DNA of 64,000 nucleotides. It comes from Candidatus Moraniibacteriota bacterium (GTDB lineage: Bacteria > Patescibacteriota > Minisyncoccia > Moranbacterales > UBA1568). This document shows positions 6,731 through 50,181 of the stretch, piece by piece. Where the stretch lies: NCBI GenBank assembly GCA_016699425.1, contig CP064975.1, positions 130,979 through 194,978 on the forward strand, given 5' to 3'. The notes beneath the pieces were generated by a model. The model saw only the letters and a list, made by a program, of their open reading frames with translations, made no database searches and was not told the origin of the DNA. How positions within the stretch are numbered: position 1 is the first letter of the stretch; the number at the start of each line of letters is the position of its first letter. A program made the position numbers and the translations under genes.

Positions 6731-6764
6731 ACATGGTAGACTGTCGGGACTTGATAAATTACCA

Positions 6765-19296: not shown

Positions 19297-19511
19297 CTTG
19301 GTAAAAATACCAACAAAAAACACCGCTCCTCGCGGAGGGTGCTTTTATTGGTCACGTAGACCAAATAAGAAAGTCGTGGAATCAGATTATACCAGAGCTA
19401 AAGGAGTGGCAAACCCTTCAGAAGGAGGAAGTAGAATGCTCGGTATTGGCTTAATTACGCTTCCCCACTGCGGTCGCTAATCTACCCATAGGGAATAGAA
19501 ACGCCTAGAAA

Positions 19512-20222: not shown

Positions 20223-20497
20223 TCCCGTGTCTCTTTACAAATATATAGCCCCAGTTCTTTATCTTGGATCTTACACTTATAACCACATTCAAAAGTAGCA
20301 TTAGGTAAAGAGCGCTTAGAAAATTCGAAGCCCGCCAGACATTCTTCGAAAGACTCGTAAGAGTCTATGGCTTTGATAGCTTCTTCTGCTAACTCGCCAT
20401 TCGGATATACGAACAAAGACCATCTATCCTTCTGCAGGAAAGAAATTAAGAACCCTACGCCAATGACGATAAAGGCTACAACAAAAAACTTTTGCAT
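20219..20497 (-). CDS. Island cassette gene 3: small Cys-containing membrane-anchored protein (92 aa)
   Basis: N-terminal TM (FFVVAFIVIGVGFLISF) followed by a small domain with four Cys. Translationally coupled to its neighbours. Confidence 0.5.
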   Translation of the reverse strand: MQKFFVVAFIVIGVGFLISFLQKDRWSLFVYPNGELAEEAIKAIDSYESFEECLAGFEFSKRSLPNATFECGYKCKIQDKELGLYICKETRD

Positions 20498-20509
20498 AGA
20501 AGAAGGCTC

Positions 20510-20692
20510 TTAGCAGGCGGTAGTATAAGTAGATACCTCACCCTCCTTAATCTCAAGGGCTATTCGTCTTAACTCGGTAATCTCTTCTGCCTCTTCTCTT
20601 GTTACCTCTTCGGAAACTGCAGTATCTCTAAGGCTATCTTCCTTAGTTACCTCATCAAGTTTAGTGAATATGATACTAAAGTCTCTACTCAT
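20510..20692 (-). CDS. Island cassette gene 2: small acidic protein (60 aa)
   Basis: Glu-rich 60-aa ORF whose start overlaps the protease gene stop (ATGA). Confidence 0.4.
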   Translation of the reverse strand: MSRDFSIIFTKLDEVTKEDSLRDTAVSEEVTREEAEEITELRRIALEIKEGEVSTYTTAC

Positions 20693-21843: not shown

Positions 21844-22239
21844 TCTGATTTCTTTAAGTCAAGTTGATTTTAGCACTTTTTAAGCATCTAAAAAATAGAT
21901 TAAATTATCATTGAAATCATAGGCTTTGTAAAGTCATTTTTCAAAAACTGAAAAAATTATGGGGGACGTATTATACCGTATATCAGAGATCTGTTTTTAA
22001 TCCACCCCCCTCACCCCTGTAGCTCCTGTGGAATTTGAATGATCCAAAAAACCAGTTTTTTAATTAAAGAAATGGGGAGGATGTATTAGCTAAGATCTAA
22101 TCGCTAGGCCCATAACAAAGAAGTTACCTAGCAAAAGGATAAAGGCCCTGATATAAAGCTTCTTTAACAATTACTACTCTAACCTTGAACGCAGAAGCAA
22201 GCGAACACATAAACGCTTGAAGCGAACTCTGTTTCGCTT

Positions 22240-22386
22240 CTAGTTATTGTCCTTAGACACTCTTTTTCTTTCTTCTAACCAGTGGCATACAAGCCAAATA
22301 CCACCAATGATAAGCGTCAGTAAGCCTACGACGCGCAAGAGGTTGTCAAACCATACCGAGAAACTAACGGTCCCTAGTTCTTCCAT
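22240..22386 (-). CDS. Candidate 48-aa hydrophobic peptide (MEELGTVSFSVWFDNLLRVVGLLTLIIGGIWLVCHWLEERKRVSKDNN) in the island non-coding spacer
   Basis: ORF found by hand (below the 60-aa cut-off of the ORF track) with a single TM helix. No clear SD. Confidence 0.2.
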   Translation of the reverse strand: MEELGTVSFSVWFDNLLRVVGLLTLIIGGIWLVCHWLEERKRVSKDNN

Positions 22387-22622
22387 AAACAGTACTTAAT
22401 GCTTAGGCTCTCCACATCGGACGCAAAACAAAAGGACGCCCGACTGGTTAGCCACGTTCGGTGTCCTTGCGGAAGCCTACTTATGACGTCGAGCGCCCCT
22501 TTCAGGCCACAAATAGGCCAAAAAAGACGCAAAGACGTCTAATTTCCGCAAAAACACAACGTAGCTAACCACCTTGATATTATCTTTTAAAAAGTCTTAA
22601 ATCAAGGTTAGGGGGATTTCTT

Positions 22623-23264
22623 ATGAGAATGAGTATGATACTGGACACCAGGAAAGCTTTTAATGCTGGCCGTTTTCAAAGCCAAGAGGAGTTCCTTGCC
22701 TTTCTGCTCGGCGATACACTGTACGAGCACAGAAATATTTATTTTCAATGCGATAGCCAGATCTATTATTCTATTGAGGAGAGCCTACGTGATAAAGAAA
22801 GGAAGAGATGTTTCCGCGTGGAAGTCTCTAGGCTAGAGGGCTATACCGGATATTTTTTTCTGACAAATATCAGCAGAACAGCCCTAGAGAAGAATGATTC
22901 CGAATGGCCGAAAGCAAAGATTAATCGAAGCCTGAAAAACGAGGCTCTAATGTTTGATACAGAAAAGTCATTGATCGCGGGGAAGACTGCCGTTAGTAAA
23001 ATCAAACCTAATACTAAGGAGAATGGGCTTTGCGTCTTTTTGTTTAAGCAGAAGACAGACCACTTTGTTGATTGGTCTCTCTTTATGGAGCACTGCACTG
23101 GGAGTGAGTACAATATGACAAAAGATGACAAAGCAAAAAATAACAGTGACAAGAAGATGATTAAAGATACTATCGATCGAATAAACAAAAGGGTTCAGAA
23201 GGACTTTGATGTAACGGATGAACTGTTTCAGTTCGAGAGAAATTGTATCAAAAGAAACTTTTAG
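22623..23264 (+). CDS. Island hypothetical protein (213 aa)
   Basis: AT-rich ORF upstream of and co-directional with the recombinase. No motif recognised. Confidence 0.5.
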   Translation: MRMSMILDTRKAFNAGRFQSQEEFLAFLLGDTLYEHRNIYFQCDSQIYYSIEESLRDKERKRCFRVEVSRLEGYTGYFFLTNISRTALEKNDSEWPKAKINRSLKNEALMFDTEKSLIAGKTAVSKIKPNTKENGLCVFLFKQKTDHFVDWSLFMEHCTGSEYNMTKDDKAKNNSDKKMIKDTIDRINKRVQKDFDVTDELFQFERNCIKRNF

Positions 23265-23343
23265 ATAAGCCAAAAATCTTTTGTCGGAAGTGAGTCACGG
23301 GGGTAAGGCGTAGAGTTGGGGCATAAAACCTCAACTCTTTTTT

Positions 23344-23583
23344 ATGCAGGACAATCACTTTTCTACTTCTGACTTTTACCTAGCCGCCTATTGTGTCGCC
23401 CAAGGGATGAAGATAGCAGGTATCAGCCGGAGCGGATCCGGTAAGGCAACTTTTCTTTTGGAGGGTGCGCCAAAAGGAAGAGAACTAATGAAAGAGTTCT
23501 TATTTAGTGACCCGAATGTAGAGGCCAAGCGTTTTGTTTCGGCAATCAAGGAACTGAAGCAATTACTTTATTCGGTAGCGTAG
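23344..23583 (+). CDS. Island small protein (79 aa), possible recombinase accessory or directionality factor
   Basis: Small basic protein immediately upstream of the serine recombinase. The functional call rests on position only. Confidence 0.35.
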   Translation: MQDNHFSTSDFYLAAYCVAQGMKIAGISRSGSGKATFLLEGAPKGRELMKEFLFSDPNVEAKRFVSAIKELKQLLYSVA

Positions 23584-23587
23584 CGTG

Positions 23588-23764
23588 ATGATCTCCATTG
23601 AAAGATGCCGACAACTAGTACCTGATCTCAAAAATCTCTCTGATGAAGAGGTTATTGAGATTAGAGAGAATCTCTATGAGGCAGGCTTGCTTGCTTTAGA
23701 GGTTTGGGCCGAAGAGAATAGTGGTTCCAAAAATCCCCCTTGGGTATTGCCCGCCAGGCCTTAA
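23588..23764 (+). CDS. Island small protein (58 aa; MISIERCRQLVPDLKNLSDEEVIEIRENLYEAGLLALEVW...)
   Basis: Hand-found ORF between the 79-aa gene and the recombinase. It is acidic, helical and tightly packed against its neighbours. Confidence 0.3.
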   Translation: MISIERCRQLVPDLKNLSDEEVIEIRENLYEAGLLALEVWAEENSGSKNPPWVLPARP

Positions 23765-23788
23765 GGAGTACCATAGTAGTAAACAAAA

Positions 23789-25312
23789 ATGAGTATGAAA
23801 AGTTCTGATACAAAAACTGGGATTATATACTGCCGAGTGTCTTCACTGGAGCAAGTGGAGGGCACAAGTCTTGGAACGCAGGAGAAGATCTGTCGCGAAT
23901 ACGCCAACAAAGAAGAGATCAAAATCCTTAAGGTATTTGTAGAAAAAGGAGAATCTGCAAAAACAGCTAATAGAACAGAGTTTAATAAAGCCATCGCTTT
24001 TTGTGCAGACAAGAAGAATCAAACAACTTTCTTCATTGTTCACAAAGTAGATAGGTTTGCGCGTAACCAGGACGATCACGCCATTGTAAGGAGTAGCTTA
24101 AAACGTCTAGGTGTTGAGCTAAGATCAGCGACCGAGCCAATCGATGAGACTCCTATGGGGCGTTTTATGGAAGGGGTCTTGTCGGCCACTGCAGAGTTTG
24201 ATAATAGTGTCCGTTCAATTCGTACCACACAAGGTATGAAAGAACGTCTCAAAAATGGCATCTGGGTATGGCAAGCCCCACTTGGGTACCACAGACCCTA
24301 CAGGGGTTCAAATCTCTTTCCTGAACCAAATATAGCCCCTCTCATTAAGCTAGGGTTTGAGGAATACTCAAAAGGAACCTACACCTACGAAAAGCTTGCC
24401 TTGTTTCTTTCTGAAAGGGGTCTTAGATCTAGAGCCGGAAAAGCTATCACTCCTCAGTTAATGGAGAAAATCATAAAGAACCCTCTCTATTGTGGAGTCA
24501 TCAAAACCTGGGGTGAGTCCGAGGGAGCTTTCGAGCCCATCATATCGAAGGAGTTATTTTTCAAGTGCCAGCCGGAAGGCATAAGATCAGCACAACCGAA
24601 TCCGCGCTCACTCAATAACCCTCTTTTTCCGTTAAGGCGTTTCATACAGTGTAGCAACTGCGAAACACCTCTTACAGGTAGTACGTCGAAAGGCAGGGAC
24701 GGGAAAGGGTATCCATACTATCATCATCACCATAAGGGCTGTGAGGAGGCTAAATCTGTACCCAAAGAAGCTTTCGAGCAGCTCTTCATCCAATTTTTAG
24801 ATGATATTTCTCCGGATGCAAAGTATGAGAAGCTTTTCAAGGCTATTGTTCTGGATATTTGGAAGAATAACTATAAGAGAATTGATGAGGAAAATGCCAA
24901 AATAAATAGAGCTGTTACTGCTTTAGAGAAGGATAGACAAAAAATCTTTGATCTCCATCGTTCTGGAAAGTATTCCGATGAAGACTTTGATGAGCAAAGG
25001 AAACTAATCTCTGTAAAGATAAATCAGAAACGACTCCTACTAAGGGAGAAATGGGATGAAGAGTTTGAAATGGAAAAAGTTTTAGACTACTGCTTTATCT
25101 ATGTTCGAAACAGTGCTGAGGCGTGGAAGAAGGCCCGGTATGAACGAAGAATAAGACTACAGAAGCTAGTCTTCGCCGGAAGGATAGATTATGACGGAAA
25201 GAAACTTGGAACCACCGAATTACGGCAGATCTATCGGATAAATCAGGCATACCAGTCTGATAAATCCTCTTTAGTAGCCCCAAGGGGAATCGAACCCCTC
25301 TTACCAGGATGA
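23789..25312 (+). CDS. Large serine recombinase (integrase)
   Basis: N-terminal resolvase catalytic domain (IIYCRVSSLEQ with the catalytic Ser, KVDRFARN), a recombinase domain and a C-terminal Zn-ribbon region (CSNCETPL...HHHHKGC). The last 38 nt are tRNA-Glu sequence. Confidence 0.85.
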   Translation: MSMKSSDTKTGIIYCRVSSLEQVEGTSLGTQEKICREYANKEEIKILKVFVEKGESAKTANRTEFNKAIAFCADKKNQTTFFIVHKVDRFARNQDDHAIVRSSLKRLGVELRSATEPIDETPMGRFMEGVLSATAEFDNSVRSIRTTQGMKERLKNGIWVWQAPLGYHRPYRGSNLFPEPNIAPLIKLGFEEYSKGTYTYEKLALFLSERGLRSRAGKAITPQLMEKIIKNPLYCGVIKTWGESEGAFEPIISKELFFKCQPEGIRSAQPNPRSLNNPLFPLRRFIQCSNCETPLTGSTSKGRDGKGYPYYHHHHKGCEEAKSVPKEAFEQLFIQFLDDISPDAKYEKLFKAIVLDIWKNNYKRIDEENAKINRAVTALEKDRQKIFDLHRSGKYSDEDFDEQRKLISVKINQKRLLLREKWDEEFEMEKVLDYCFIYVRNSAEAWKKARYERRIRLQKLVFAGRIDYDGKKLGTTELRQIYRINQAYQSDKSSLVAPRGIEPLLPG

Positions 25313-25346
25313 AAACCTGGCGTCCTAACCGATAGACGATGGGGCC
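25275..25346 (-). tRNA. tRNA-Glu (anticodon TTC); its 3' end is overlapped by the serine recombinase ORF
   Basis: Acceptor GGCCCCA/TGGGGCT, D-arm GTCT-ATCGGTTA-GGAC, anticodon stem CCAGG/CCTGG, loop TTTTCAT, T-arm AGGGG-TTCGATT-CCCCT. Confidence 0.8.
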
Positions 25347-29295: not shown

Positions 29296-29388
29296 GTCGC
29301 CTCACCGGGAGAGAGTGGCCAGGAAAGAAAGAAGCAGCGTATCAGTCCAAGACTGGCACGCTGTTTTCAATTCCTTGAATTTGATTAT

Positions 29389-29421
29389 TCCAAGTGGATC
29401 CGTTCTTCGACGGTCCGGAGA
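29389..29421. repeat. Displaced, synonymously re-coded copy of the recG 3' end (direct repeat of 30506-30538)
   Basis: 31/33 nt identical to the true recG terminus. Read on the minus strand it still encodes ...TVEERIHLE-stop, using GAA/TAA where recG has GAG/TAG. Confidence 0.7.
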
Positions 29422-29426
29422 AAGAA

Positions 29427-30449
29427 TCAGATCGGGTAGCTGTTGATCACTTTGAGAAACCGCTCCTCGGTCTCGGGAGTGATGGCATCAAGGAATTTAT
29501 TCATATCGTTATCGAGTCCCGTGTCTGCTACATAATGCTCGCGGGCGTGTTTCAAATGCGTAGCAGTAAACTGTTCATCGGCAACGAAACCGAAATAGTT
29601 TTTCAATTGAGACATTCTTTCGACGATTTCATCGGCCTGGAGAATATAATTTCGTTTGCCCGCTATGGCTTCCGGATCGAGCGCCTGTTTTATTTCAGTT
29701 GACATCTGTCCGGAGAATTTTCTTACGGCGTGACCCTTCTCGTGCGCTTCAATGATATTCTTTTGTCTGGGTGTAAGGGGCATGTTCTCCCGTGTCGAAG
29801 CGTCGGAAAATACGACACCTGAATGAATAAGTTCATCTTTGCTTGTTTGAGCATCGATTCTGTGTTGAGATACCCCCAATGCTTTTTCTGTTTTCCCATA
29901 TTCGCTCGCCTTGCCCACGCCTGTCGCCTGGAATCTATCCCGTACGCGCGCTGAAAAATCTTGAACCTGCTGTTTCTGGAAAGAGAGAAACTGGTCCGCT
30001 TTATCTAGCGGCCCGGGTTCCTCGTCGGGAAACGAGTCTGCATGGGTCGCGAAAGTACCTTCCAGCTTCATCTGGGTTGCAGGGTGGAGAAGCCGTTCGT
30101 GCAACAAGAGTGTCCAATCGCCGGGATAATTCGCCTCTGCTTCAACGATCTTTGCTTCCACTTCCAGTATCCGCTTCTGGGTTATCGTTTGGGCAGGTGA
30201 ATTTGCGACGCTTCCCTCTAGTCCTAGTGTGGTGCGGGCAGTTGTGAGAGCGGCCTGAGTTTCTTCATAAGTAACTTTCGTGGCATCAAGTCCCTTTTTG
30301 AGCATCTCGATTTTCTGAGTTCTCGCGCCCAGTACTGCTGGGTCATCGACGACGGAGGTGAGTGGTTTTTGCTCGACTGCTTCCGGTGGGGCCTGCTCTT
30401 CGCTTGGAGATGGTATCTTTTCTACGGTTCCCTTTCCTTCAAAGTCCAT
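29427..30449 (-). CDS. Hypothetical protein with an HExxH (HEKGH) zinc-metallopeptidase-like motif, carried on a ~1.1-kb insertion
   Basis: 340-aa ORF with IIEAHEKGHAV. It lies between recG and the displaced copy of the recG 3' end. Confidence 0.55.
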   Translation of the reverse strand: MDFEGKGTVEKIPSPSEEQAPPEAVEQKPLTSVVDDPAVLGARTQKIEMLKKGLDATKVTYEETQAALTTARTTLGLEGSVANSPAQTITQKRILEVEAKIVEAEANYPGDWTLLLHERLLHPATQMKLEGTFATHADSFPDEEPGPLDKADQFLSFQKQQVQDFSARVRDRFQATGVGKASEYGKTEKALGVSQHRIDAQTSKDELIHSGVVFSDASTRENMPLTPRQKNIIEAHEKGHAVRKFSGQMSTEIKQALDPEAIAGKRNYILQADEIVERMSQLKNYFGFVADEQFTATHLKHAREHYVADTGLDNDMNKFLDAITPETEERFLKVINSYPI

Positions 30450-30502
30450 ACGGTGCTGTCTTTTACCTTATTGTAGTGCTTTGGTGGGGATATCTTCCTA
30501 TT

Positions 30503-32590
30503 CTACTCCAAGTGGATCCGTTCTTCGAAGGTCTGGAGGGCCCGGCGGAGAAGGGGATGACTCGCGAGTGTCGGGTCGGCGGCGAGGACGGCAGCAGCTT
30601 TTTCGCGAGCGATTTGGATGAGCTTCACATTGGACAGGTGCTCCATGGCGATGTCGGGGAGGCCGGACTGGCGCGTGCCCAGGAAGGCACCGGGACCGCG
30701 CAGTTTCAAATCAATCTCAGCGAGTTCAAAACCACTCGTGGTTTCTTCCAGTGCTTGCAGTCTCGCACTCTCAGGACTTTTGCCGTCGCTCGGAAAGAGA
30801 AAACAGTAGCTCTGCTCGCTCCCACGCCCGACGCGGCCGCGGAACTGGTGGAGCTGGGACAGGCCGAAGCGCTCGGCGCCCTCGATGAGCATCACCGCCG
30901 CATTCGGGATATCGATGCCCACCTCGACGACGGCGGTCGCGACGAGGACGTCGAGTTTTCCGTTCTTGAAAGCCTGCATGACGGCCTCTTTTTCTTTCGC
31001 CTTGAGTCGGCCGTGAACGAGTCCGAGCGAACGATCAGGGAAAATATCTTTAGCGAGGCGTTCGTGTTCGGATGTCGCGGCCTTCACCTCTTCCATCGCT
31101 TTGCTTGCTTCGACCAAGGGGAGGATGACGAAGGCCTGCCGGCCCTTCTGGATTTCCTCTTCGATGAAGGCGTAGACTTTTTCCCGGGCGGTCTCGCTCG
31201 CGGCGACACGAGTGATGATGGGCTTCCTGTCCCGAGGCATCTCATCGAGGAGAGAGAGGTCGAGATTGCCGAAGAGCGTGAGGGCGAGCGTACGCGGGAT
31301 GGGTGTGGCGGTCATGGTGAGGAAGTGCGGGATGGTCGACTCTGAACCATCTTCGCTCGCGAAGGCTTGTTCTTGGAGCCGGGCGCGTTGGGCGACACCA
31401 AAGCGATGCTGTTCATCGACGACGATGAGGGCGAGCGACTGGAAGCGAACGGCGTCCTCGAGGATGGCGTGGGTGCCGATGACGATATCCGGTATCCCGG
31501 CCTCGATCGCTTTGATGAGCGACCGGCGACTGATGGTCTCGCCCGAGAGGGTCGAAGTACTGCCGGTGAGGAGGGCGACGTTTTTTCCGAGGGGCGCAAA
31601 GAGCCGTTCAAAGGTCTGGGCGTGCTGTGTGGCCAGGACTTCGGTCGGAGCGAGGAGCGCGGATTGGTATCCGTTTTGGACAGTCGCGTACATTGCGGTC
31701 GCGGCGACGACAGTCTTGCCACTGCCGACATCGCCATTTAGGAGTCGGTTCATGGGGTGCGATTCGCGGAGGTCGGCGAGGATTTCAGCGATGGCTTTTT
31801 CCTGGGCAGCAGTCAGGGCGAAGCCGAGTGTCGTGAGGAAGGCTTGGTGGTCAGCGGGGGAGAGAGGAATATTTACAGCCTGACCCTCTGCGGCGGTGGC
31901 GCGGACGGCGAGGCTTTTCAGCTGGAGAAAAAACATCTCCTCGAAGGCGAAGCGTTTTTTGGCGAGGAGGACTTGCTTTTCGGTCTTGGGGAAATGAATA
32001 TAGGCGAGCGCAGTGCGGAGGTCGGGGAGGTGGAGGTCGGTGATGATCGCGGTATCGAGCGGATCGGGGATGGCTTTCAGTTTTCCGAAAATGGTCGCAA
32101 TCTGCCAGCGTAGGAATTTCGAGGTGAGGCCCGTCGTCTCGGGGTAGACAGGCACGAGGCGCCCTGTGTGCGTCGCGGCCCGCTCAGCTCGCTCAAAGGC
32201 CGGTGATTGTATGACGAGGCTGTCCCGGTCGCGGACGACTTTACCGGAGAGCCGGACTGTCTGCCCCTCTTTCAAGACCGTCTGTACGAAGCGCTGATTG
32301 AACCATATGGCGCGAAGCGTGCCGGTGGCATCTTCGATCGTCGCTTCGGTCAGGAGGAGTTTCTTTTTCCAGGTGCGCTCGGCCGAGAGGGTGGTGACGG
32401 TGCCTTCGACGGTGACGCGGGTGTCGGGCATCAGGTCAGCGATCGGCGTCGTGACCGAGTAATCCTCGTAACGGGCCGGGAAATGATAGAACAAGTCGCG
32501 CACCGTTTCGATACCGAGGCGCTTCAGGGCGTACCAGTGGGCCTTCTTGATCGTGGGGGAGGTGTCGAGTCGGGTCGTGAAGTCAAGCAT
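30503..32590 (-). CDS. recG: ATP-dependent DNA helicase RecG
   Basis: Wedge domain plus SF2 helicase with Walker A (GDVGSGKT), DEQH box, motif VI (QLHQFRGRVGRG) and an intact C-terminus. Confidence 0.95.
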   Translation of the reverse strand: MLDFTTRLDTSPTIKKAHWYALKRLGIETVRDLFYHFPARYEDYSVTTPIADLMPDTRVTVEGTVTTLSAERTWKKKLLLTEATIEDATGTLRAIWFNQRFVQTVLKEGQTVRLSGKVVRDRDSLVIQSPAFERAERAATHTGRLVPVYPETTGLTSKFLRWQIATIFGKLKAIPDPLDTAIITDLHLPDLRTALAYIHFPKTEKQVLLAKKRFAFEEMFFLQLKSLAVRATAAEGQAVNIPLSPADHQAFLTTLGFALTAAQEKAIAEILADLRESHPMNRLLNGDVGSGKTVVAATAMYATVQNGYQSALLAPTEVLATQHAQTFERLFAPLGKNVALLTGSTSTLSGETISRRSLIKAIEAGIPDIVIGTHAILEDAVRFQSLALIVVDEQHRFGVAQRARLQEQAFASEDGSESTIPHFLTMTATPIPRTLALTLFGNLDLSLLDEMPRDRKPIITRVAASETAREKVYAFIEEEIQKGRQAFVILPLVEASKAMEEVKAATSEHERLAKDIFPDRSLGLVHGRLKAKEKEAVMQAFKNGKLDVLVATAVVEVGIDIPNAAVMLIEGAERFGLSQLHQFRGRVGRGSEQSYCFLFPSDGKSPESARLQALEETTSGFELAEIDLKLRGPGAFLGTRQSGLPDIAMEHLSNVKLIQIAREKAAAVLAADPTLASHPLLRRALQTFEERIHLE

Positions 32591-37227: not shown

Positions 37228-37332
37228 AGAGTATGTGAATATTTCTTTTTATTCACTATACCATGATTTGTCCTGTCCGCGATCCCGTCAGAGAGCGGGG
37301 AACCTTCGGTACCTTGCCCTATCCAATCAAAG

Positions 37333-37419
37333 CGGAAGCGGAAGGATTCGAACCTTCGGTACCGTTTCCGGTACTGCAGTTTTCAAGACTGCTGCCTTCA
37401 ACCGCTCGGCCACGCTTCC
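37333..37419 (-). tRNA. tRNA-Ser (anticodon TGA), class II long variable arm
   Basis: Acceptor GGAAGCG/CGCTTCC, anticodon stem GCAGT/ACTGC, loop CTTGAAA, a variable arm of about 18 nt and T-loop TTCGAAT. Confidence 0.8.
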
Positions 37420-37487
37420 GCTCTGATAAGATAGTTTAGTTTTTCCGCCAGAGGCGGGATTGCTGTTTATAACTACATTGTAATGAC

Positions 37488-37606
37488 ATGTAGATAAACA
37501 GGGAACAAGACTGCTGCCTTCCCTGCCCGCCTTCGGAGGGAACCACTCGGCCACTCCTCCGCTTTCATAAGATACCCTTCAATCCCACCCGGCGGACCAC
37601 GCTTCC
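37488..37606 (-). pseudogene. Two degenerate partial copies of the tRNA-Ser(TGA) 5' region separated by a hairpin
   Basis: GACTGCTGCCTT-[CCCTGCCCGCCTTCGGAGGG]-AACCACTCGGCCACTCCTCCGC parallels the tRNA segment GACTGCTGCCTTCAACCGCTCGGCCACGCTTCCGC. A second copy (GGCGGACCACGCTTCC) lies at about 37590-37606. Confidence 0.5.
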
Positions 37607-39795: not shown

Positions 39796-41322
39796 ATGAC
39801 CCCGCTCACCATTATTCTCGCCCTTGCTGCACTCGGCATCGGCGTCCTTGTCGGATACCTCATCCGTCAAAACCTGGCCAAGAAGCAGCTCTCCACGGCT
39901 GAGGGCCAAGCGGCCAAAATCATCGAAGAAGCCAAGAATACATCAAACACTCTCACACTCGAGGCCAAGAATAAGGCCGTCGAGATTCTTGAAGTTGCCA
40001 AGAAAAACGAACAGTCCCGAGAGGAGAAGATCGGCCATCAGGAATCCCGGCTCGAAAAGCGCGAAGAGCAGATTGAAAAGGAGGCGCAAGCGATCGATGA
40101 TGAGAAGAAGCGGCTCCTCAGCCGGGCCGAAGAGATTCAGGCGATCAAGGCTGAGGTCGAAAAGCTGAAGCAACAAGAAGTCGAAGAGTTGCAGCGCACC
40201 GCCAAGCTCAGTCATGAGGAGGCTGAGAGCCGGCTCATGAAGCTCGTCGAGGAAGAGAGCAAGGATGCCCTCGTCGCCCGGATGTCGAAGCTCGAAAATG
40301 AGGCGCATGATGAGCTCGAAAAACGCTCGTTCCAGATCATGGCGACGATCATCCAGAAGTACTCGCGCACCCATGTGTCCGAGTTCACCACGACCACGAT
40401 CACCATCCCGTCGGACGATATCAAGGGTAAGATCATCGGCAAGGAAGGTCGCAATATCCGCGCGCTGGAAAAGGAAACTGGGGTGGAACTCATCGTCGAC
40501 GATACGCCGGAGTCCATCATTATCTCGGGTTTTGACCCGGTGCGTCGCGAGGTGGCCCGCATCGCGCTCGAGAAGCTGATCGCGGACGGTCGTATCCATC
40601 CGGCCCGCATTGAAGAGGCGGTCGCGGAGGGGCGCAAGGAAATCGACAACAAGATCAAGGAAGCTGGCGAGGCCGCGGCCTATGAAGCGGGGGTAGCCGG
40701 TCTCCATCCGAAACTCCTTTACATCCTCGGGCGGCTCCGTTTCCGCTACAGTTACAAACAAAATGTGCTCCTCCACTCACTCGAAGTGTCCTATCTCTCG
40801 GCAGCGCTCGCGGCCGAACTCGGCGCGGATGTCGCGACGGCTCGCAAGGCTGGACTCATGCATGATATCGGCAAGGCGGTGGATCATGAAATCGAGGGGA
40901 CCCATGTGAAGATTGGGATGCGCATCTTGGAGAAATTTGGGATCGGGCAGAGTGTCATCGACGGGATGAAGTCACATCATGACGAATACCCGCACGCGAC
41001 GATCGAGAGCTATATCGTGACGGCGGCGGATGCCCTGTCGGCGGCTCGGCCCGGAGCGCGCAAGGAAACAGCCGAGAAGTATATCAAGCGGCTCGAAGAA
41101 CTCGAATCCCTCATCAATACCTTTCCGCAGGTGGAGAAGTCCTATGCGATCCAAGCTGGTCGTGAGGTTCGCATCTTCGTCAATCCCGAAAAGACCGACG
41201 ACTACGGCGCGATGACCCTCGCCCGCGACGTATCAAAGCGCATCCAAGAAGAGCTCCAATATCCTGGAGAAATAAAAGTGGTGGTATTTAGGGAAACAAG
41301 AGCAGTAGAATATGCGCGATAA
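39796..41322 (+). CDS. rny: Ribonuclease Y
   Basis: N-terminal TM, a coiled coil, a KH domain (IIGKEGRNIRALEKETGVELIVDD) and an HD domain (HSLEVSYLSAALAAELG...LMHDIGK). Start placed at MTPLTIIL. The last 13 codons use atypically AT-rich codons. Confidence 0.9.
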   Translation: MTPLTIILALAALGIGVLVGYLIRQNLAKKQLSTAEGQAAKIIEEAKNTSNTLTLEAKNKAVEILEVAKKNEQSREEKIGHQESRLEKREEQIEKEAQAIDDEKKRLLSRAEEIQAIKAEVEKLKQQEVEELQRTAKLSHEEAESRLMKLVEEESKDALVARMSKLENEAHDELEKRSFQIMATIIQKYSRTHVSEFTTTTITIPSDDIKGKIIGKEGRNIRALEKETGVELIVDDTPESIIISGFDPVRREVARIALEKLIADGRIHPARIEEAVAEGRKEIDNKIKEAGEAAAYEAGVAGLHPKLLYILGRLRFRYSYKQNVLLHSLEVSYLSAALAAELGADVATARKAGLMHDIGKAVDHEIEGTHVKIGMRILEKFGIGQSVIDGMKSHHDEYPHATIESYIVTAADALSAARPGARKETAEKYIKRLEELESLINTFPQVEKSYAIQAGREVRIFVNPEKTDDYGAMTLARDVSKRIQEELQYPGEIKVVVFRETRAVEYAR

Positions 41323-41365
41323 AAGTGGCCTGCCCGTCCGAAGCTGGAATTTTCAGCGAAGGCGG

Positions 41366-41407
41366 GTCGTGTTCCGCGAGACCCGCGCGGTCGAGTACGC
41401 CAGGTAG
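41366..41407. repeat. Displaced GC-rich re-coded copy of the rny 3' end (encodes VVFRETRAVEYAR-stop out of frame with rny)
   Basis: The hand translation of 41366-41407 is identical to the final 13 residues of RNase Y plus a stop. It lies 44 nt downstream of the real stop, and its codon usage matches the bulk genome. Confidence 0.65.
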
Positions 41408-41488
41408 TGAAATTTCGACGAGCGAAGCTTGATTGCTATAAAAACAACACTTGGGAGTTGTTTTTATATGTCGAAATTCTACTACCTG
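41401..41488. repeat. 88-bp MITE-like palindromic element (19-bp terminal inverted repeats CAGGTAGTGAAATTTCGAC / GTCGAAATTCTACTACCTG, inner 9-bp-stem hairpin)
   Basis: Near-perfect 19-bp inverted repeats (two mismatches) enclose a core with AAAAACAAC...GTTGTTTTT. The left repeat starts inside the displaced rny end. Confidence 0.55.
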
Positions 41489-41679
41489 GTACGCCCGCTA
41501 ATACAGCTTCTAGGTTGTAGTGGGTAGCTTGTAGGCGGTAGCTGGTTGCGTGTGGGTTGTAAGCGGGTAGGGATGAGAAAATACAGAAAAGAGCAGGTTC
41601 CCGAGATGGGCTTGCCTGCCGGTAGGCATGAATTTTGCTTTATGTAAAGCAAAAATACTGATTCTAGTGGCAGCGGTTC

Positions 41680-41708
41680 TTGACAGAATCCCTGCGGGGT
41701 GCTACCAT
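41680..41708 (+). promoter_or_regulatory. Sigma70-like promoter (TTGACA-17 bp-TACCAT)
   Basis: Consensus -35, a 17-bp spacer and -10 TACCAT. It predicts a transcript start near 41715. Confidence 0.5.
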
Positions 41709-41714
41709 GTGGCT

Positions 41715-41979
41715 ACCTTTGATTCGCGCTTCCATGAGAAGACGGTCAGGGGGTGGTAGTGTCCCATTGTCGTTCTTGTTTGTGTTACTGTTCTCACTGT
41801 TTGTTCTGTTTGTTCGCAGGAGTTCGCAGGGGCCTGGTGCGCACCGCGCCCCGAAACCATTCTGGTACCCTTTGCACCACCCATATCGCCGCGTCTGATC
41901 AACGCAGCACCCAACGTCCGTAGTGGATTACTTGAGGGACTCCAAACCCCTCGGAATCGTCTACGGACTTTTCTTTATT
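41715..41979 (+). ncRNA. Candidate ~265-nt small RNA or short-ORF transcript bounded by a promoter and a terminator
   Basis: The unit runs from the predicted transcript start to a terminator at 41916-41979 (GTCCGTAG...CTACGGAC followed by TTTTCTTTATT, with an inner GAGGG/CCCTC stem). The only ORF is a 72-aa Arg-rich low-complexity one. No homology recognised. Confidence 0.3.
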
Positions 41980-42268
41980 ACTGCATTGTTGACTAGATAG
42001 CACATGGGTGCTATTTTTTCTTTTCATTAACAACAGGAGATTTTCATGGACAGGGAATGGGACTGGTGGGTGAAGTCATTTATCTTGCTTCCGATCGAAC
42101 AAGGCCGGAAAGACTTGGAAACGCGACCCAATCGCGGTGAGGCGGCACGAGTTCAGGTTGGGGACATCATCTGTTTCAACCGGTCTGTCCGTCGACGAGT
42201 CATCGCAATCCGGCACTACCAATCGTTCAAAACGATGCTTGTGGTTGAAAAGTCTGAACGTTTCTATC

Positions 42269-43473
42269 GTTACCGTTACCTTTTCAGTTGATAGTAGGGC
42301 GCTTTTTTTCAAAAAGTTTTACTGCTTCTACGCCTAGTTTTACTAATGTCTCAGGCCAGCGAGCCTGTTTTTTGATACTCAAAGAGAGTGAAGGGTAACC
42401 GTTCAAATATTTAAATTTAGCTTCACAATCTGTAAAAAGGCTTGGTTCTCCTCCGTATCATCCACGCATTCAACCAACACTGAGCCGAAGCAAAACTCTG
42501 AAAACCCTTGATCGTCTTCAGCCTCCCATTGAGATGGGAATTGTAGAGTTCAATGAGATTGGTGTTGTTGGGACAGCCTGGCAGCAGCAAGTAATTGAAG
42601 AGTTCCTCCTGCCGGTACGCTATCTCACTTACGATGTTTTTGAGCAGACGTTTCTCTCTCTTGATGCTCGCGGCAAAAGATCGAATGGCGTTCGTCACAT
42701 CCTCTCGTTCTCCAAACACGCTCTCCTTGAGAGCGTAAAAGAAGGGCCGGTATCGCTCTTCACTCCGCACCCGTAAAGCCACCCGGATATTCTCCAGGTA
42801 GTGGTTGTGGCAGAGCTGCAGCCGAGCCGACGGAAAAACCTTCAGGAGAGCCTTTTTCAGGCCAGAGCGGTCATCGGCGACCACGATCTGAAGATCATAG
42901 CCAAGTTGCTTCACTTGATGGAAGAAACGTGAGAAGGACACCTCATCTTCCGCTGTATACAAAGCCCCGAAGGGAATATCGTGGGTCAAGTAATCAATGC
43001 CGTAGAGAAAAGGAATCTTTCTCGCAAAGCCTTTGACCGCCACATACTTCCCATCCATGACAAGGATGCCCGAGAAGCGTCTCGGGTCACAGAGGGTTTG
43101 CGTCAGAGCGTCATTGGAAGGAAGTTGTGCTAATTCTCTTGTAACTCTCACGAAGGCTTGTTTTCCCGAGAGACCATATTCATCTCCTAATTTACGAAAC
43201 GGTACCCCATCAATATGCTCGATCCACAGCAGTCTCGGATCATGCCCGAAGTAACGAGAAAAAGAATGTTCACAAGCACGACACAGGTAGTGATGGCTGT
43301 AGCCTTGGGAGCCATTCTTCACCGTCTCACGACTGCTGCAGCGGGGACAGTGACGTGACCATTTTTTTTGACATGCTGAATGAAATTTAAGGCTTAAAGT
43401 CAACTTTACAGCCGGTTTGAGGCTCTAGTCTAACAAGAACAACACTTTCCATCAACTGAAAAGGTAACGGTAT
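42269..43473. mobile_element. Complete ~1.2-kb IS element with 22-bp terminal inverted repeats (TACCGTTACCTTTTCAGTTGAT) and a ~10-bp target-site duplication (CGTTTCTATC)
   Basis: The left repeat at 42271-42292 is the reverse complement of 43451-43472. The direct repeat CGTTTCTATC lies at 42259-42268 and 43474-43483. The element holds a single transposase ORF. Confidence 0.75.
42423..43403 (-). CDS. IS transposase with N-terminal zinc ribbon plus DDE domain (IS1595/ISNCY-like; family call tentative)
   Basis: CPRCSSRETVKNG...CRAC zinc ribbon. Candidate catalytic acidic residues in ILVMDGKYV, IVVADDRSG and HNHYLEN. Confidence 0.7.
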   Translation of the reverse strand: MTLSLKFHSACQKKWSRHCPRCSSRETVKNGSQGYSHHYLCRACEHSFSRYFGHDPRLLWIEHIDGVPFRKLGDEYGLSGKQAFVRVTRELAQLPSNDALTQTLCDPRRFSGILVMDGKYVAVKGFARKIPFLYGIDYLTHDIPFGALYTAEDEVSFSRFFHQVKQLGYDLQIVVADDRSGLKKALLKVFPSARLQLCHNHYLENIRVALRVRSEERYRPFFYALKESVFGEREDVTNAIRSFAASIKREKRLLKNIVSEIAYRQEELFNYLLLPGCPNNTNLIELYNSHLNGRLKTIKGFQSFASAQCWLNAWMIRRRTKPFYRL

Positions 43474-43861
43474 CGTTTCTATCCGGGCGCCACGAGAGAT
43501 GTCATTCTCGGAGCCCTCAGAGAAATGTATCGGACTGATCCCGAGCAGGGAGTGTTCTGCTTCGAACTCGAACGAATTAGTTAAGGGGGCATCATGTACC
43601 AATCGTGATGCCCTTTGAAATTTCGATTCTTGACAGAAATCCCAGAGGAGAGCCAAAAACTCCTGCCCGAAATGCGAAGTTCGTTTCAACTGAAAAATGA
43701 GTAAAGGTTTTTTCTTCAGGAGCAGGTTTCCCTAGAGTAGATTCGTATAACGTGGCAGGCGGGGCTTGCGCACTTCTAGATTTTGGCTTATTCTCGGGGC
43801 AAGGAGGCTGAGGTCTCCAAAAAGAATGAAACAATAAGCTAGAAAGAGAGGTGGAAAAATT

Positions 43862-46227: not shown

Positions 46228-48267
46228 ATGCTGAACTCAAATCTCGAGAAGAACGTCGAAAAGGGGTACCAATCACTCGGACGGTCAATACTCCTCGTGG
46301 GGAGGCAGAAGGTTCGGTTTTCTCTGGCGCTCCTTAGCATCATGTTCGTGGGCGGGGCGCTCGCGATGCTCATCTGGAACGTCTCAAGTACCTTCAACAA
46401 TGACTCAATCCAAGGCTCGCTCGCTTTGTTGCCGGGGGTGGAGTTGAATACCACGCAGGCAGCCGCGAATTCGACCTTGCTTTTCAATCCGGCCAGTGTG
46501 TCTGTCGCTGGTGATCAGCAGTTCTCCCTGGATGCGCGGATCAATCCTGGTACCAACGCAGTGAGTGCGGTCGAGCTGCATGTCACCTATGATCAAACAA
46601 AATTCCGACTGGATAGCATCACGGCTTCATCCCCGTTCACTCTCGAGCTGGCTGCGGCGTCAATCAACAATACAAATGGTACGGCCTCTATCGCGTTGGC
46701 GGTTCCTTTGACAAGCCCGTCGGTCACGACGACATCGACGATCGCGACGTTCTCGTTTCATTCCCTGGCGTCCGTGACAGGTTCTTCGATTGCGTTTACC
46801 GCAGCGTCGATCGCTTCTGCTGATGGCGAATCTGGCAATGCGATCATTACTCGTACACCAGCGACCGTTACGGTCGATGGCACAGCGCCCACCATCACCA
46901 CCATCACCTCGTCCCAAGCCAACGGAACATACACGACTGGTGCCGTCATCCCGATCAATCTCACCTTCTCCGAAGCAGCGACCTCGACTGGCAATGTCAC
47001 GGTCACACTGGAAACTGGTACGACCGATCGCACCTGCACGTTCACTGTGTCGAATTCGACGACGGGGAGCTGTAACTACACGGTCCAAGCCGGAGATACC
47101 ACAACTGATCTCAACGTGAATACGGTCTCTGGTGTCATCCGGGACCAGGCTGGGAATGCGATGACCAACTTCGTTCCGACGACGAACCTGGCTGCTAACA
47201 AGGCACTGGTGATTGATACGACTGCTCCGACCAATCAGCAAACTGTCTTTTCGACGAGTGTTTCGGTAGCGGGCGGAGCAAGTGTCACGATCGTTTCGTC
47301 AGGAGACTCCACGAACAATGTCTGGTTTGCCCCATCGGGTACCACAAACTTCGTAGCGAGCGCGACTATGACCAAAGCCGCGAATGGCTCATCGACCACC
47401 ATCCTCGCCCCAGCTACAGGTGGAAGCTACAAGCTGTTTGTGATCGATGCGGCCGGCAATGTGTCTACAGCCTCAACAGCAACCTTGACGGTTGATAGCG
47501 TGCCGCCCACCATCACCACCATCACCTCGTCCCAAGCCAACGGAACATACACGACTGGTGCCGTCATCCCGATCAATCTCACCTTCTCCGAAGCAGCGAC
47601 CTCGACTGGCAATGTCACGGTCACACTGGAAACTGGTACGACCGATCGCACCTGCACGTTCACCGTATCGAATTCGACGACGGGGAGCTGTAACTACACG
47701 GTCCAAGCCGGAGATACCACAACTGATCTCAACGTGAATACGGTCTCTGGTGTCATCCGGGACCAGGCTGGGAATGCGATGACCAACTTCGTTCCGACGA
47801 CGAACCTGGCTGCTAACAAGGCACTGGTGATTGATACGACAACGCCGGTGATCTCTGTGGTATCGGCGATCCCGAGCATTACCCGGGACTCTACACCGTA
47901 CTATGTGTTCAATGCGACAAAGCCCGGAACGATCACGTATGGGGGCGGCTGTTCATCGAGTACGACTGCCGCCGTATCGGGCAGCAACACCGTCACTTTC
48001 AACACACTGAGTCCAGGTACGTACGCGAGCTGCACACTCTTCATCACGGATGCATCGAGCAATTCGAGTAACACGCTCAGTATCGCTTCGTTCGTTGTGA
48101 CATACGCGAGTGATCTCAATTTGGACCGGACGGTAAATGTTATCGACTTCGGTGTTCTGAAGACAAACTACGGCACCACCAATGCTGCGGGCGATATCAA
48201 TAGCGATGGCCAGGTCAATGTGCTGGACTTCGGCGTCCTGCATGGTCAGTATGGGAGCAGTGTGTAA
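46228..48267 (+). CDS. Scaffoldin-like surface protein: TM anchor, cohesin-like module, two identical 112-aa Ig-like repeat modules, further beta-rich modules and a C-terminal dockerin
   Basis: 679 aa. The cohesin-like module is residues ~85-215. An exact protein repeat is encoded by a 336-bp DNA tandem repeat. The C-terminal dockerin reads DLNLDRTVNVIDFGVLKTNYG / DINSDGQVNVLDFGVLHGQYG, two DxNxDxxVNxxD Ca-loop repeats. Confidence 0.7.
   Translation: MLNSNLEKNVEKGYQSLGRSILLVGRQKVRFSLALLSIMFVGGALAMLIWNVSSTFNNDSIQGSLALLPGVELNTTQAAANSTLLFNPASVSVAGDQQFSLDARINPGTNAVSAVELHVTYDQTKFRLDSITASSPFTLELAAASINNTNGTASIALAVPLTSPSVTTTSTIATFSFHSLASVTGSSIAFTAASIASADGESGNAIITRTPATVTVDGTAPTITTITSSQANGTYTTGAVIPINLTFSEAATSTGNVTVTLETGTTDRTCTFTVSNSTTGSCNYTVQAGDTTTDLNVNTVSGVIRDQAGNAMTNFVPTTNLAANKALVIDTTAPTNQQTVFSTSVSVAGGASVTIVSSGDSTNNVWFAPSGTTNFVASATMTKAANGSSTTILAPATGGSYKLFVIDAAGNVSTASTATLTVDSVPPTITTITSSQANGTYTTGAVIPINLTFSEAATSTGNVTVTLETGTTDRTCTFTVSNSTTGSCNYTVQAGDTTTDLNVNTVSGVIRDQAGNAMTNFVPTTNLAANKALVIDTTTPVISVVSAIPSITRDSTPYYVFNATKPGTITYGGGCSSSTTAAVSGSNTVTFNTLSPGTYASCTLFITDASSNSSNTLSIASFVVTYASDLNLDRTVNVIDFGVLKTNYGTTNAAGDINSDGQVNVLDFGVLHGQYGSSV
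46887..47840 (+). repeat. Tandem direct repeat inside the scaffoldin gene: two 336-bp copies (46887-47222 and 47505-47840), >99% identical, period 618 bp
   Basis: The copies differ at only about two positions. Each encodes APTITTITSSQANGTYTTGAVIPINLTF...NLAANKALVIDTT. Confidence 0.85.
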
Positions 48268-48308
48268 GAAGTGGTGGAGTGAAGATGGTTATCTCGTGAA
48301 AACATAAA

Positions 48309-48962
48309 ATGACTAAAACTATCATTATGGACGACCTCCGAAAAACGGATGCGGGAGGAATGGGCAGTGCCGTGGGATTGGGAGCAGTGATTCTCGTCTT
48401 GGTCGTCGTGGGGATAGTCGTGTGGAAGTATAGTGCGACCTCACTCGCCCCGTCATCGCCCCAGGTGGTGACTGGTGTAAAGGAGACACCGCTGCCACCG
48501 GAGGAACTGGTCCGCGTCACTCCGGCGCTTGGGCATGCAGAAAGCACACTGGAATTCACCCCGGAAAAGTCGTCAGTGGCCGTGAGTCAGCGCTTCTCGT
48601 TGGATGCGGTCGTTCAACCAGGCAGCAATCGGGTCAGTGGTGCCGAACTTCACGTTCGGTTTGATCCGAAAATGGTTCAGTTGGAAGGGATCCAGGCGTC
48701 ACCCGCCTTCTCCCTCGAATTGCAGGCAGCGAAGATAGACAATGCCGCTGGGACGGCAGTCATCGCTTTGGGTACCTCGCTCAACGAATCGTCCGTCGTT
48801 GCAGAACAGACGGTGGCGAAGTTTTCCTTCCTCGCGCTGGATTCAGTCGGCACGACGCGTGTCGAGATCGTCGATACATCGCTTGTCTCGGCTGATAATG
48901 AAGCACAGAATGTTCTGAAAGCAATAAAGGCGGCACAAGTCACGATTTCAACGGGAGACTAA
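48309..48962 (+). CDS. Membrane-anchored cohesin-like module protein (paralog 2)
   Basis: N-terminal TM plus one module (LEFTPEKSSVAVSQRFSLDAVVQPGSNRVSGAELHVRFDPKMVQLEGIQAS...). Confidence 0.6.
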   Translation: MTKTIIMDDLRKTDAGGMGSAVGLGAVILVLVVVGIVVWKYSATSLAPSSPQVVTGVKETPLPPEELVRVTPALGHAESTLEFTPEKSSVAVSQRFSLDAVVQPGSNRVSGAELHVRFDPKMVQLEGIQASPAFSLELQAAKIDNAAGTAVIALGTSLNESSVVAEQTVAKFSFLALDSVGTTRVEIVDTSLVSADNEAQNVLKAIKAAQVTISTGD

Positions 48963-48974
48963 TTCTTGGACCGG

Positions 48975-49490
48975 ATGATAGCAATGCATATGGATGAGGC
49001 AATCGCAGGAAAGTGCGTACGGGATATCATGCGGCATGACGTGGTCTCGGTCGCTTCGGACCAGACAATTCAGGATGTCGCGGAAGCGCTGACGAAGCGA
49101 AGCATCCATGGCGTTCCCGTCATCGACAGGGACTCTACGGTGGTTGGGATCGTGACAGAATCGGATTTCTTCATGAAGGACCGGGCCACTCTGCATATCC
49201 CTTCGTTTATGGATATCATGCAAAAGACGATGGTCGCGAAGGCACTGGGGGATACCGATCGCGCCACCATCGACCGGGTCCTCTCGGCTCGAGTGAAGGA
49301 TATCATGACGGCCGAGTGCATGACCGTGTATGAGGGGACTCCTCTGCATGATCTGCTGCAGATATTTGCGACGACTCACTTCAAGACCATCCCAGTCGTT
49401 GACGACCAGCGCCGGTTGGTGGGTGTCGTGACCGTGATGGATATGTTGACCGCGATCACTCCTCCTGTTGGGCGGGTTTCGGGAGCGTGA
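48975..49490 (+). CDS. CBS-domain pair protein
   Basis: Two CBS motifs (VRDIMRHDVVSVASDQTIQDVAEALTKRSIHGVPV and VKDIMTAECMTVYEGTPLHDLLQIFATTHFKTIPVV). A TTG alternative start lies at 48966. Confidence 0.75.
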   Translation: MIAMHMDEAIAGKCVRDIMRHDVVSVASDQTIQDVAEALTKRSIHGVPVIDRDSTVVGIVTESDFFMKDRATLHIPSFMDIMQKTMVAKALGDTDRATIDRVLSARVKDIMTAECMTVYEGTPLHDLLQIFATTHFKTIPVVDDQRRLVGVVTVMDMLTAITPPVGRVSGA

Positions 49491-49586
49491 ATAGTGCAGC
49501 AGCGGGTGGGAGATTGAAACATTATATGGGGTCGTGTTATATTATGATTCATGTGAGCAAACGGTAGCTCAGTCGTGCGTTGATTC

Positions 49587-50108
49587 GTGAAAGATACTAT
49601 GAACAGGAAATATTTCAGTACTATGCAGTGGGTGTTCGGACTCGTGGCATTTGCGGTGCTTCCGGGTGTGGCGAATGCTGGTACGGCGCATTTGACCTGG
49701 AATGCGAACAGCGAAGGTGATCTCGCTGGATATACGATTTACTATGCGACGTCATCTCACTCGGGGACATGCCCGACGGGGTATACGAGCAACCAGAACG
49801 CTGGAAATGTTACTTCTTACTATTTCGACAACTTGACCGCTGGGCAAACATACTATTTCCAGCTGACCGCCAAAGACACGTCAAATAACGAGAGCGGGTG
49901 TTCGACGAGCCCGGGTGAAGTTTCGAAGCTCATCACTTACCGTAGTGATTTGAATACGGACCATGCGGTGAACGTCCTCGATTTCGGGGTACTCCATACG
50001 AACTATGGGAATACGACGCCGGGCAATGTCGCCGACATCAACCGGGATAGCGCGGTGAACGTCCTCGATTTCGGAATCCTTCATGGAGAATACGGTGGCA
50101 GTTTCTAG
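49587..50108 (+). CDS. Secreted fibronectin-type-III plus dockerin protein
   Basis: Signal peptide, an FN3-like module (LTWNANSEGDLAGYTIYYA...TYYFQLTAKDTSNNES) and a C-terminal dockerin (DLNTDHAVNVLDFGVLHTNYG / DINRDSAVNVLDFGILHGEYG). Confidence 0.7.
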   Translation: MKDTMNRKYFSTMQWVFGLVAFAVLPGVANAGTAHLTWNANSEGDLAGYTIYYATSSHSGTCPTGYTSNQNAGNVTSYYFDNLTAGQTYYFQLTAKDTSNNESGCSTSPGEVSKLITYRSDLNTDHAVNVLDFGVLHTNYGNTTPGNVADINRDSAVNVLDFGILHGEYGGSF

Positions 50109-50181
50109 GATTGGAGTGGAGAGATAGCTTCCACGAACACGGTGTCGAGACACACAGCACAACAAGTTAAACGAAAATAAT

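Follow-up and report, generated by a model that had tools for sequence, protein, structure and literature searches.

The gene for RNase Y, rny, terminates in a foreign copy of its own 3′ end in the 64,000-nt stretch of Candidatus Moraniibacteriota DNA analyzed here (contig CP064975.1, positions 130,979–194,978; hereafter the window, in whose own numbering all coordinates are given unless another contig is named). The interval between rny and hup is an insertion hot spot that holds two independent layers. The first layer is an 85-bp foreign segment (41281–41365), located exactly at codon −13 and composed of an rny tail of the type found in AT-rich Moranbacteria, a stop codon and 43 nt of further sequence. 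RNase Y is completed by this tail with its protein sequence unchanged, while the native tail remains as an out-of-frame relic 85 nt downstream. The second layer is a 90-bp miniature inverted-repeat transposable element (MITE) inserted at the TACG of the native tail. Neither layer is a functional device; each leaves the RNase Y protein intact and is tolerated for that reason. As a complete explanation, we favor insertion of a foreign tail by copying, insertion of a MITE and a swap of the downstream cassette, an account that we hold at slightly less than even confidence.

Two synonymous ends of rny

The list of open reading frames (ORFs) places rny at 39796–41322 on the forward strand, encoding 508 aa; identical products carry the Pfam domains RNase_Y_N, KH_1 and HD and the database name ribonuclease Y. 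The functional end of the gene, its last 13 codons plus TAA (41281–41322, forward strand), reads GTG GTA TTT AGG GAA ACA AGA GCA GTA GAA TAT GCG CGA TAA. An initial annotation, made from the letters of the window, had described these codons as AT-rich and unlike the rest of the gene, and codon composition bears this out. G or C occupies the third position (GC3) in 3 of the 13 codons, compared to 0.70 for rny as a whole (binomial P = 6.5e-4) and 13 of 13 for a downstream copy of the tail. This second VVFRETRAVEYAR* (41366–41407; GTC GTG TTC CGC GAG ACC CGC GCG GTC GAG TAC GCC AGG TAG) repeats the same 13 residues and a stop in GC-rich codons and out of frame, as had been claimed. It lies 44 nt 3′ of the rny end, offset by 85 nt from the AT-rich copy and in the +1 frame. 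Not one of the 14 codons is the same in the two copies, yet the encoded residues are unchanged. Aligned in register, the copies agree at 25 of 42 positions and never over more than 2 nt in a row.

Duplicated C-terminal tails are rare in this DNA. A tblastn search with all 56 gene ends in the window returned tail duplicates for rny (E = 2.4e-6) and recG only, which puts the rny duplication beyond chance, an explanation that the annotation had judged unlikely, and leaves recG as the sole further case. A coincidental peptide match was rejected on the same count. An assembly artefact was also considered and rejected, given that the identical block occurs in eight independent contigs.

Between the two tails lies the 43-nt spacer that arrived with the AT-rich tail (41323–41365, forward strand). 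It is 60% GC, 100% identical in the eight sister contigs described below and otherwise single-copy; a weak hairpin spans 41333–41366 (fold z-score −1.8). The first part of the displaced tail, VVFRETRAVEY and the first base of the Ala codon, follows at 41366–41399 (forward strand), out of the rny frame and untranslated by rny. On the other side, the 17 codons preceding the replaced tail (41230–41280, forward strand) contain a patchy set of A-ending codons unique to this lineage (GTA, TCA, CAA and ATA). Four unique A/T-ending codons in 17 place this stretch in the upper ~5% of the 17-codon windows of rny, and it is possibly a partial conversion tract. An exact 10-nt direct repeat, ATAAAAGTGG, is also found around the AT-rich tail (41272–41281 and 41319–41328, forward strand). 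A role as attachment (att) core or target duplication was rejected, as deleting the bracketed segment restores no rny frame, and the repeat is possibly due to chance.

The downstream copy as the ancestral end

Relatives with 91–97% identical RNase Y (L004–L010 and L087; identities of 97, 96, 92 and 91%) have one GC-rich rny end and lack the AT-rich tail, as exemplified by L007 (GTC GAG TAC GCC CGC TAA). In these genomes a terminator and then hup follow 190–600 nt 3′ of rny, and a 77% relative has the same synteny. The window and eight sister contigs from other samples (L001–L003 and L088–L092) instead contain the AT-rich tail, the identical 43-nt spacer and then the GC-rich tail. Because the 91–97% relatives have a single GC-rich end, the GC-rich copy is ancestral, and the AT-rich tail with its spacer (85 nt) derived. 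When the MITE and one TACG are removed from the window, 18 of 18 nt match the last six codons of L007, and the reconstructed displaced tail as a whole is identical to that of L007 at 40 of 42 positions. These comparisons uphold the earlier proposal of an ancestral GC-rich copy. The AT-rich end, absent from all of these relatives and with its GC3 of 3/13, is derived and foreign-looking, as also proposed. The sharply foreign part begins at codon −13, where the annotation had placed it, as rny 5′ of 41280 is still 89% identical to L087. Together, the distribution identifies the 85-nt block as a single-origin insertion fixed in one Moraniibacteriota species-level clade.

An in-place tandem duplication of the tail, followed by divergence or local recoding of one copy, would likewise leave two copies encoding the same 13 residues 85 nt apart. 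However, no codon among the 14 is shared and some Arg codons are two steps apart (CGC to AGG and AGA), although the peptide is unaltered. Most of the substitutions are C-to-A transversions, which excludes deamination as their source. Strains that have diverged by ~4% elsewhere still have the block at 100% identity, which leaves no time for saturation. In addition, the GC-rich copy has no counterpart of the spacer after it, and no partly recoded intermediate allele was seen in 19 rny loci. In-situ duplication with divergence was rejected on the substitution pattern and the strain identity, and we regard this origin as highly improbable.

Diversity-generating retroelements (DGRs) are common in bacteria of the candidate phyla radiation (CPR), and the tail pair could be compared to their template and variable repeats. 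In this case, however, the substitutions are synonymous at every third position and extend beyond the adenines of the GC-rich downstream copy. The A’s of the GC-rich copy (in GAG, ACC and TAC) are unchanged in the gene copy, and no reverse transcriptase is found nearby. With the wrong substitution pattern, a DGR-like origin was rejected and carries next to no credence.

Strain comparison also revealed a later exchange downstream of the block. Across hup and the final 650 nt of rny, strains of the L001 type, which have the AT-rich block and lack the MITE, are at least 99.3% identical to the window. Over 41390–43625 the two strain types are unrelated, with a 2.2-kb segment in the window, at 41401–43625, in place of 275 nt in L001. 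The 2.2 kb of the window comprise the MITE, a G/T-rich stretch, a promoter and terminator unit, and an 81-aa ORF cut by an IS256-family insertion sequence. Only three synonymous changes (GTC/GTT, GCC/GCT and CGC/CGT) separate the final five relic codons of one strain type from those of the other. This indicates that this piece diverged while it was still coding, and hence that the cassette was exchanged by recombination with a lineage whose GC-rich tail was functional.

In a different sister contig, L090 (~3905–3915), the displaced GC-rich tail has a non-synonymous CGC to AGC change, Arg to Ser, which is consistent with a relic free of selection.

Origin of the AT-rich block

Entry of the 85-bp block in one step, by homology-guided copying from or recombination with the DNA of an AT-rich relative, is our tentative proposal, and it stops somewhat short of probable. 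The left side would have been aligned through homology with a foreign, AT-rich rny, which would explain why the junction is in register and why A-ending codons are scattered upstream of it. Copying would then have run past the stop codon and the hairpin, and the far end would have joined the recipient at the GGT microhomology with no second homologous crossover, so that the native tail was kept and not replaced. The block would later have spread or persisted in the species, and the downstream cassette would have been swapped later still, by recombination with a lineage in which the GC-rich tail still coded.

Several observations agree with an insertion. The event is a pure insertion at a single point, in which each copy opens with the same Val codon, GGT is all that the junctions have in common and the recipient has lost no DNA. 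The codons of the AT-rich tail are those that an AT-rich genome uses. A 40%-GC Moranbacterium with the same iPGM–rny–hup synteny has a similar tail (GTT TTT CGC GAG ATG AGA GCT GTA GAG TAT GCT CGT TAA). The 26-mer of the AT-rich tail that encodes RETRAVEYA exactly matches rny genes of AT-rich Firmicutes, and a metagenome scan returned Firmicutes rny only. The process resembles homology-facilitated and short-patch illegitimate recombination, in which foreign DNA is likewise inserted through one homologous side and one microhomology joint. Those events, known from DNA uptake, rely on a near-identical anchor and usually delete recipient DNA. Unlike these, the rny insertion seems to have cost no recipient DNA and to have involved a strongly diverged donor.

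Other observations weigh against this proposal. The donor was not found; the spacer has a single copy in the sequences searched and is missing from viral contigs, with the scans of metagenomes and genomes devoted to other patterns. A GC content of 60% for the spacer is odd for an AT-rich donor unless it forms a terminator stem, and its hairpin reaches a z-score of −1.8. Homeologous invasion at ~65–90% identity is inefficient. The excess of A-ending codons upstream is modest, at about the top 5% of windows. The MITE may have been inserted before or after the block arrived. Finally, scars of integrative elements are demonstrably common in these genomes, which favors a different origin.

A phage source for the block was considered and rejected. 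Viral contigs gave no matches to the tail, the spacer, the junction between them or the MITE end, and no rny-bearing viral contig was found among them. The sole match in the phage database was an AT-rich Staphylococcus rny.

The block may instead be the scar of an AT-rich phage or island whose site-specific recombinase, probably a large serine recombinase, acted at codon −13 and brought its own tail, with the body deleted later. The closest known analogue is the E. coli icd gene, where a foreign, synonymously diverged 3′ end brought by e14 (and phage 21) completes the gene and the original fragment persists as the downstream pseudogene icdC (PMC13626634). rny is also completed by a foreign synonymous 3′ end, with its native C-terminal fragment displaced downstream. 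An in-register junction is inherent to integration that supplies a tail. The junctions share GGT alone, which is enough for the 2-nt crossover (GT, present at both junctions) of a serine recombinase and which also fits chance or microhomology. The same genomes harbor comparable elements, namely a 6.1-kb AT-rich island in this window that encodes a large serine recombinase and lies between two copies of a 15-nt sequence from the tRNA-Glu 3′ end; an AT-rich recombinase element and a tRNA 3′-end duplicate with only ~190 nt between its copies in L004; and the repeat-flanked 1.1-kb insert at recG.

However, the copies of icd are separated by a 15-kb prophage that encodes an integrase and whose excision restores the native end, whereas the rny copies are separated by 43 nt that contain no ORF and no recombinase. 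The locus has neither an integrase nor cargo, no att-type repeat exceeds 3 nt, and the divergence of the tails (25/42 nt identical) is far higher than that at icd. A scar would require a second, nearly complete deletion, and no other copy of the tail plus spacer was found in the viral contigs or the loci examined. Genomic islands and decayed remnants flanked by att sites at tRNA genes and gene 3′ ends, scars similar to cis-mobilizable elements, likewise have a 3′-end duplication on either side of inserted DNA. The scars of this kind here (the tRNA-Glu island, recG and L004) keep near-identical repeats of 15–36 nt, whereas the rny copies retain none, with runs of at most 2 nt in register. We consider an integrative-element scar the main rival to copying, possible but somewhat less likely.

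The AT-rich island itself (~19178–25273, within the region 19163–25346) has a GC content of 0.41 compared to 0.55, with the large serine recombinase at 23789–25312. Its flanking direct repeat, GTAGCCCCAAGGGGA (19163–19177 and 25274–25288), corresponds to the 3′ end of tRNA-Glu, and the region is a classical integrative element. Elsewhere in the window (37300–37560, reverse strand), a 5′ piece of tRNA-Ser and a 3′ piece, GGTACCGAAGGTTC, adjoin intact tRNA genes, and in L004 (1620–2100) the tRNA 3′-end duplicate of 17 nt lies ~190 nt from the tRNA. These tRNA fragments look like small scars of past integrations.

A MITE inside the displaced tail

The second layer is a 90-bp MITE (41400–41489, reverse strand), a short member of a family of palindromic elements in Patescibacteria, which matches the family profile over its full length (nhmmer E = 3.7e-7). 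The initial annotation had described an 88-bp palindrome with near-perfect inverted ends and an inner hairpin. The element and its architecture stand, but by family comparison it extends to 90 bp, CCAGG...CCTGG, with arms of 20 nt and an inner stem of 12 bp in place of 9. The left terminal inverted repeat, CCAGGTAGTGAAATTTCGAC (41400–41419), and the right, GTCGAAATTCTACTACCTGG (41470–41489), are complementary at 18 of 20 positions. The perfect inner stem is formed by TATAAAAACAAC (41437–41448) and GTTGTTTTTATA (41457–41468) around an 8-nt loop, and the whole element has a fold z-score of −8.2.

The MITE is flanked by a 4-bp TACG duplication (41396–41399 and 41490–41493), and L001-type strains provide the empty site with a single TACG. 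The right TACG opens the remaining piece of the ancestral tail, TAC GCC CGC TAA (YAR*; 41490–41501, forward strand), which equals the last codons of L007. The palindrome had been said to overlap the downstream copy. The AGG TAG that closes that copy does belong to the element, but the element lies inside the tail and not beside it, with 41490–41501 as a third piece. The CC AGG TAG of the left end happens to re-encode the Ala-Arg-stop of the displaced tail. The ...EYA motif of RNase Y always encodes TAYG, and insertion there in a gene ending in ...EYAR* is therefore silent in the protein. With inverted repeats, a target duplication with its empty site, dispersed copies, small size and no coding capacity, the palindrome is a true MITE, inserted two codons from the end of the displaced tail. 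A second copy was not found in the window with either the arm pattern or the family profile. Since L001-type strains carry the block without the MITE, the two are separate events.

This independence bears on a further proposal, that the block belongs to a class of small mobile elements that target gene 3′ ends and carry a replacement end, with the palindrome and the recG insert as members or partners. Two gene-tail duplications do occur within 64 kb, and a small element family that preserves flanking ORFs does exist. The 85-bp block, however, is single-copy in all sequences searched, has no terminal repeats, target duplication or relatives, and is found without the MITE in all eight sister contigs. 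The MITE family profile misses the spacer, and similarities between spacer motifs and other inserts are at chance level. A spacer that is a degenerate MITE or shared element was rejected on the profile miss and on the chance-level scores of CGAAGGCGGG, CCTGCCCG and an alignment to the 104-nt insert in the hup promoter.

recG had been presented as a case of the same kind as rny, and the comparison does not support this. In the window (29385–30540, reverse strand), the recG tail LQTFEERIHLE* recurs as LRTVEERIHLE* past a 1.1-kb insert, whose 340-aa ORF has an HExxH motif and matched nothing in Pfam. The duplication is a 36-nt direct repeat with 32 of 36 positions identical, and both copies have ATC CAC TTG, absent from insert-free relatives, where recG ends ...CGG ATT CAT CTG GAG TAG and is followed by AAAAAAGGAATTGAAAACAGCG. 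Near-identical DNA with shared derived bases points to an in-situ duplication, and recG is best described as an insert between direct repeats of DNA, which sets it apart from a recoded replacement. The single class of elements carrying replacement ends is thus not borne out, and we judge it very improbable.

The MITE family in Patescibacteria

Copies of the palindrome outside the window had been anticipated, and a scan of species-representative genomes with CCAGGTAGTRRAATTTCGAC yielded 76 loci (L011–L086), nearly all in Gottesmanbacteria and other metagenome-assembled genomes of Patescibacteria. The copies are mostly inverted pairs that span 134–145 nt (for example L015, 2428–2566), with lengths of 58–177 nt overall. 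Density reaches five copies in 8 kb (L078), and contigs break inside copies. The 20-nt arms are invariant in 64 aligned copies, and the ends begin CCAGGTAGT. The interior contains a conserved AGAAAGGA motif and, in full-length elements, a GAGATTTCGA/TCGAAATTTC hairpin. Two helices covary in the crossing order X, Y ... X′, Y′, a pseudoknot-like arrangement that might reflect folding as RNA or single-stranded DNA more than plain protein-binding ends. A second subfamily of ~205–211 nt has only the outer 12 nt in common (L020, 5333–5536; L055, 3095–3305).

Full-length copies mostly have a TATG duplication, while short variants (58–158 nt) have 4–5-bp duplications of their own (TCA A, (C)AAAG and TTTA/TTAA). 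When copies were oriented by the conserved AG/GA asymmetry of the arms, ~62–67 of 71 full-length copies (~90%) abutted the T|ATG of a real downstream ORF in one orientation. Same-strand ORFs upstream usually show one of three arrangements: a stop 7–8 nt short of the element (TAA + AGGAG), an overlap with it (TATGA) or a run into it that ends at its TAG. This in-frame TAG terminates the upstream ORF in at least 7 of 70 members, in the same frame as in rny, and a small ORF-preserving element therefore does exist. The MITE keeps ORFs intact through its target duplication and the stop codon at its end, not through 13 replacement codons.

In their small size, inverted ends, short duplication and high copy number, these elements are similar to Correia/NEMIS elements of Neisseria, ERIC/IRU, RUP, the Rickettsia palindromic elements and MITEAba12. 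These known elements also share a position in transcribed intergenic DNA and stop and start codons near their ends, which are able to fuse with neighboring genes (PMC6382973). The present family is distinguished from them by its CCAGGTAGTRRAATTTCGAC ends, its Patescibacteria hosts and the lack of a known autonomous partner. Strict T|ATG adjacency and crossing covariation are not known features of bacterial MITEs. No arms 1–3 kb apart and no transposase between arms were found in ~600 kb of loci, and a transposase with the ends of the MITE, IS1380-type or other, was not found in the loci examined. The CC...GG ends and 4(–5)-bp duplications fit the IS1380 family, whose members have CC ends and 4–5-bp duplications, and this is offered as a lead only. 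Among Rfam 15 covariance models, none matched window positions 41200–43800 at E ≤ 1, and full-length family members gave nothing above noise. No paper with the end sequences of the family was found in the literature, nor one describing MITEs in Patescibacteria, and the family appears to be unreported so far.

A more speculative reading, possible rather than probable, sees in the palindrome one member of a so far undescribed family of ~140-nt elements, spread across Patescibacteria and adapted to tightly packed genes. The adaptations would include the TAG of the invariant end, the regenerated T|ATG, the ribosome-binding-like AGAAAGGA and the crossing helices. If true, such an element would be mobile and compatible with operons, and would bring its own module for expression or processing and perhaps an unusual chemistry of transposition.

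Other features of the rny–hup interval and the window

The rny–hup interval contains further insertions. An IS256-family insertion sequence with 25-bp inverted ends (42268–43475, reverse strand; Pfam Transposase_mut, E = 1.5e-11) encodes a 326-aa Mutator-type transposase and interrupts the 81-aa ORF that starts at 42046. Compared to L001, an insertion of ~104 nt (43660–43763) with inverted ends CCTGCC/GGCAGG lies between the −35 and −10 of the hup promoter. A 15–21-nt copy of the start of the hup promoter, CGGTTCTTGACAGAA (41674–41688), is found 1.95 kb upstream and brackets the segment containing the insertion sequence. Just past the ancestral rny stop, 41506–41561 comprises three degenerate, G/T-rich units of 14–15 nt (GCTTCTAGGTTGTA...) at 21-nt spacing. 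The interval of the window (~41680–41980) and that of L001 (~6620–6860) each hold a GC-rich unit with a TTGACA-17-TAnnAT promoter-like site and a terminator-like hairpin. The two units are unrelated in sequence and look like non-coding RNA genes, without an Rfam match.

Further downstream, a 679-aa gene (46228–50110) contains a stretch of several hundred nt that is directly repeated within the gene at the DNA level. The dockerin-like motif at its C-terminus (VNVLDFGVLH) is also present in neighboring paralogues, and neighbors in relatives have cohesin and dockerin Pfam matches.

Implications

The locus is accounted for by known kinds of events, replacement of a gene 3′ end by foreign DNA with a relic left behind and insertion of a MITE, and a new MITE family emerged as a by-product. 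A strikingly recoded gene end need not mean a new class of mobile element. The interval instead preserves, layer upon layer, the capture of foreign DNA, the insertion of a MITE and the swapping of a cassette at a conserved gene boundary in a reduced CPR genome. The recoded tail and its relic mark gene flow between AT-rich and GC-rich Moranbacteria, and they provide a natural example of an RNase Y gene that tolerates insertions when the protein end is recreated. The MITE family may offer a way to study transposition, operon architecture and RNA processing in Patescibacteria, a group that is still hard to culture and manipulate.

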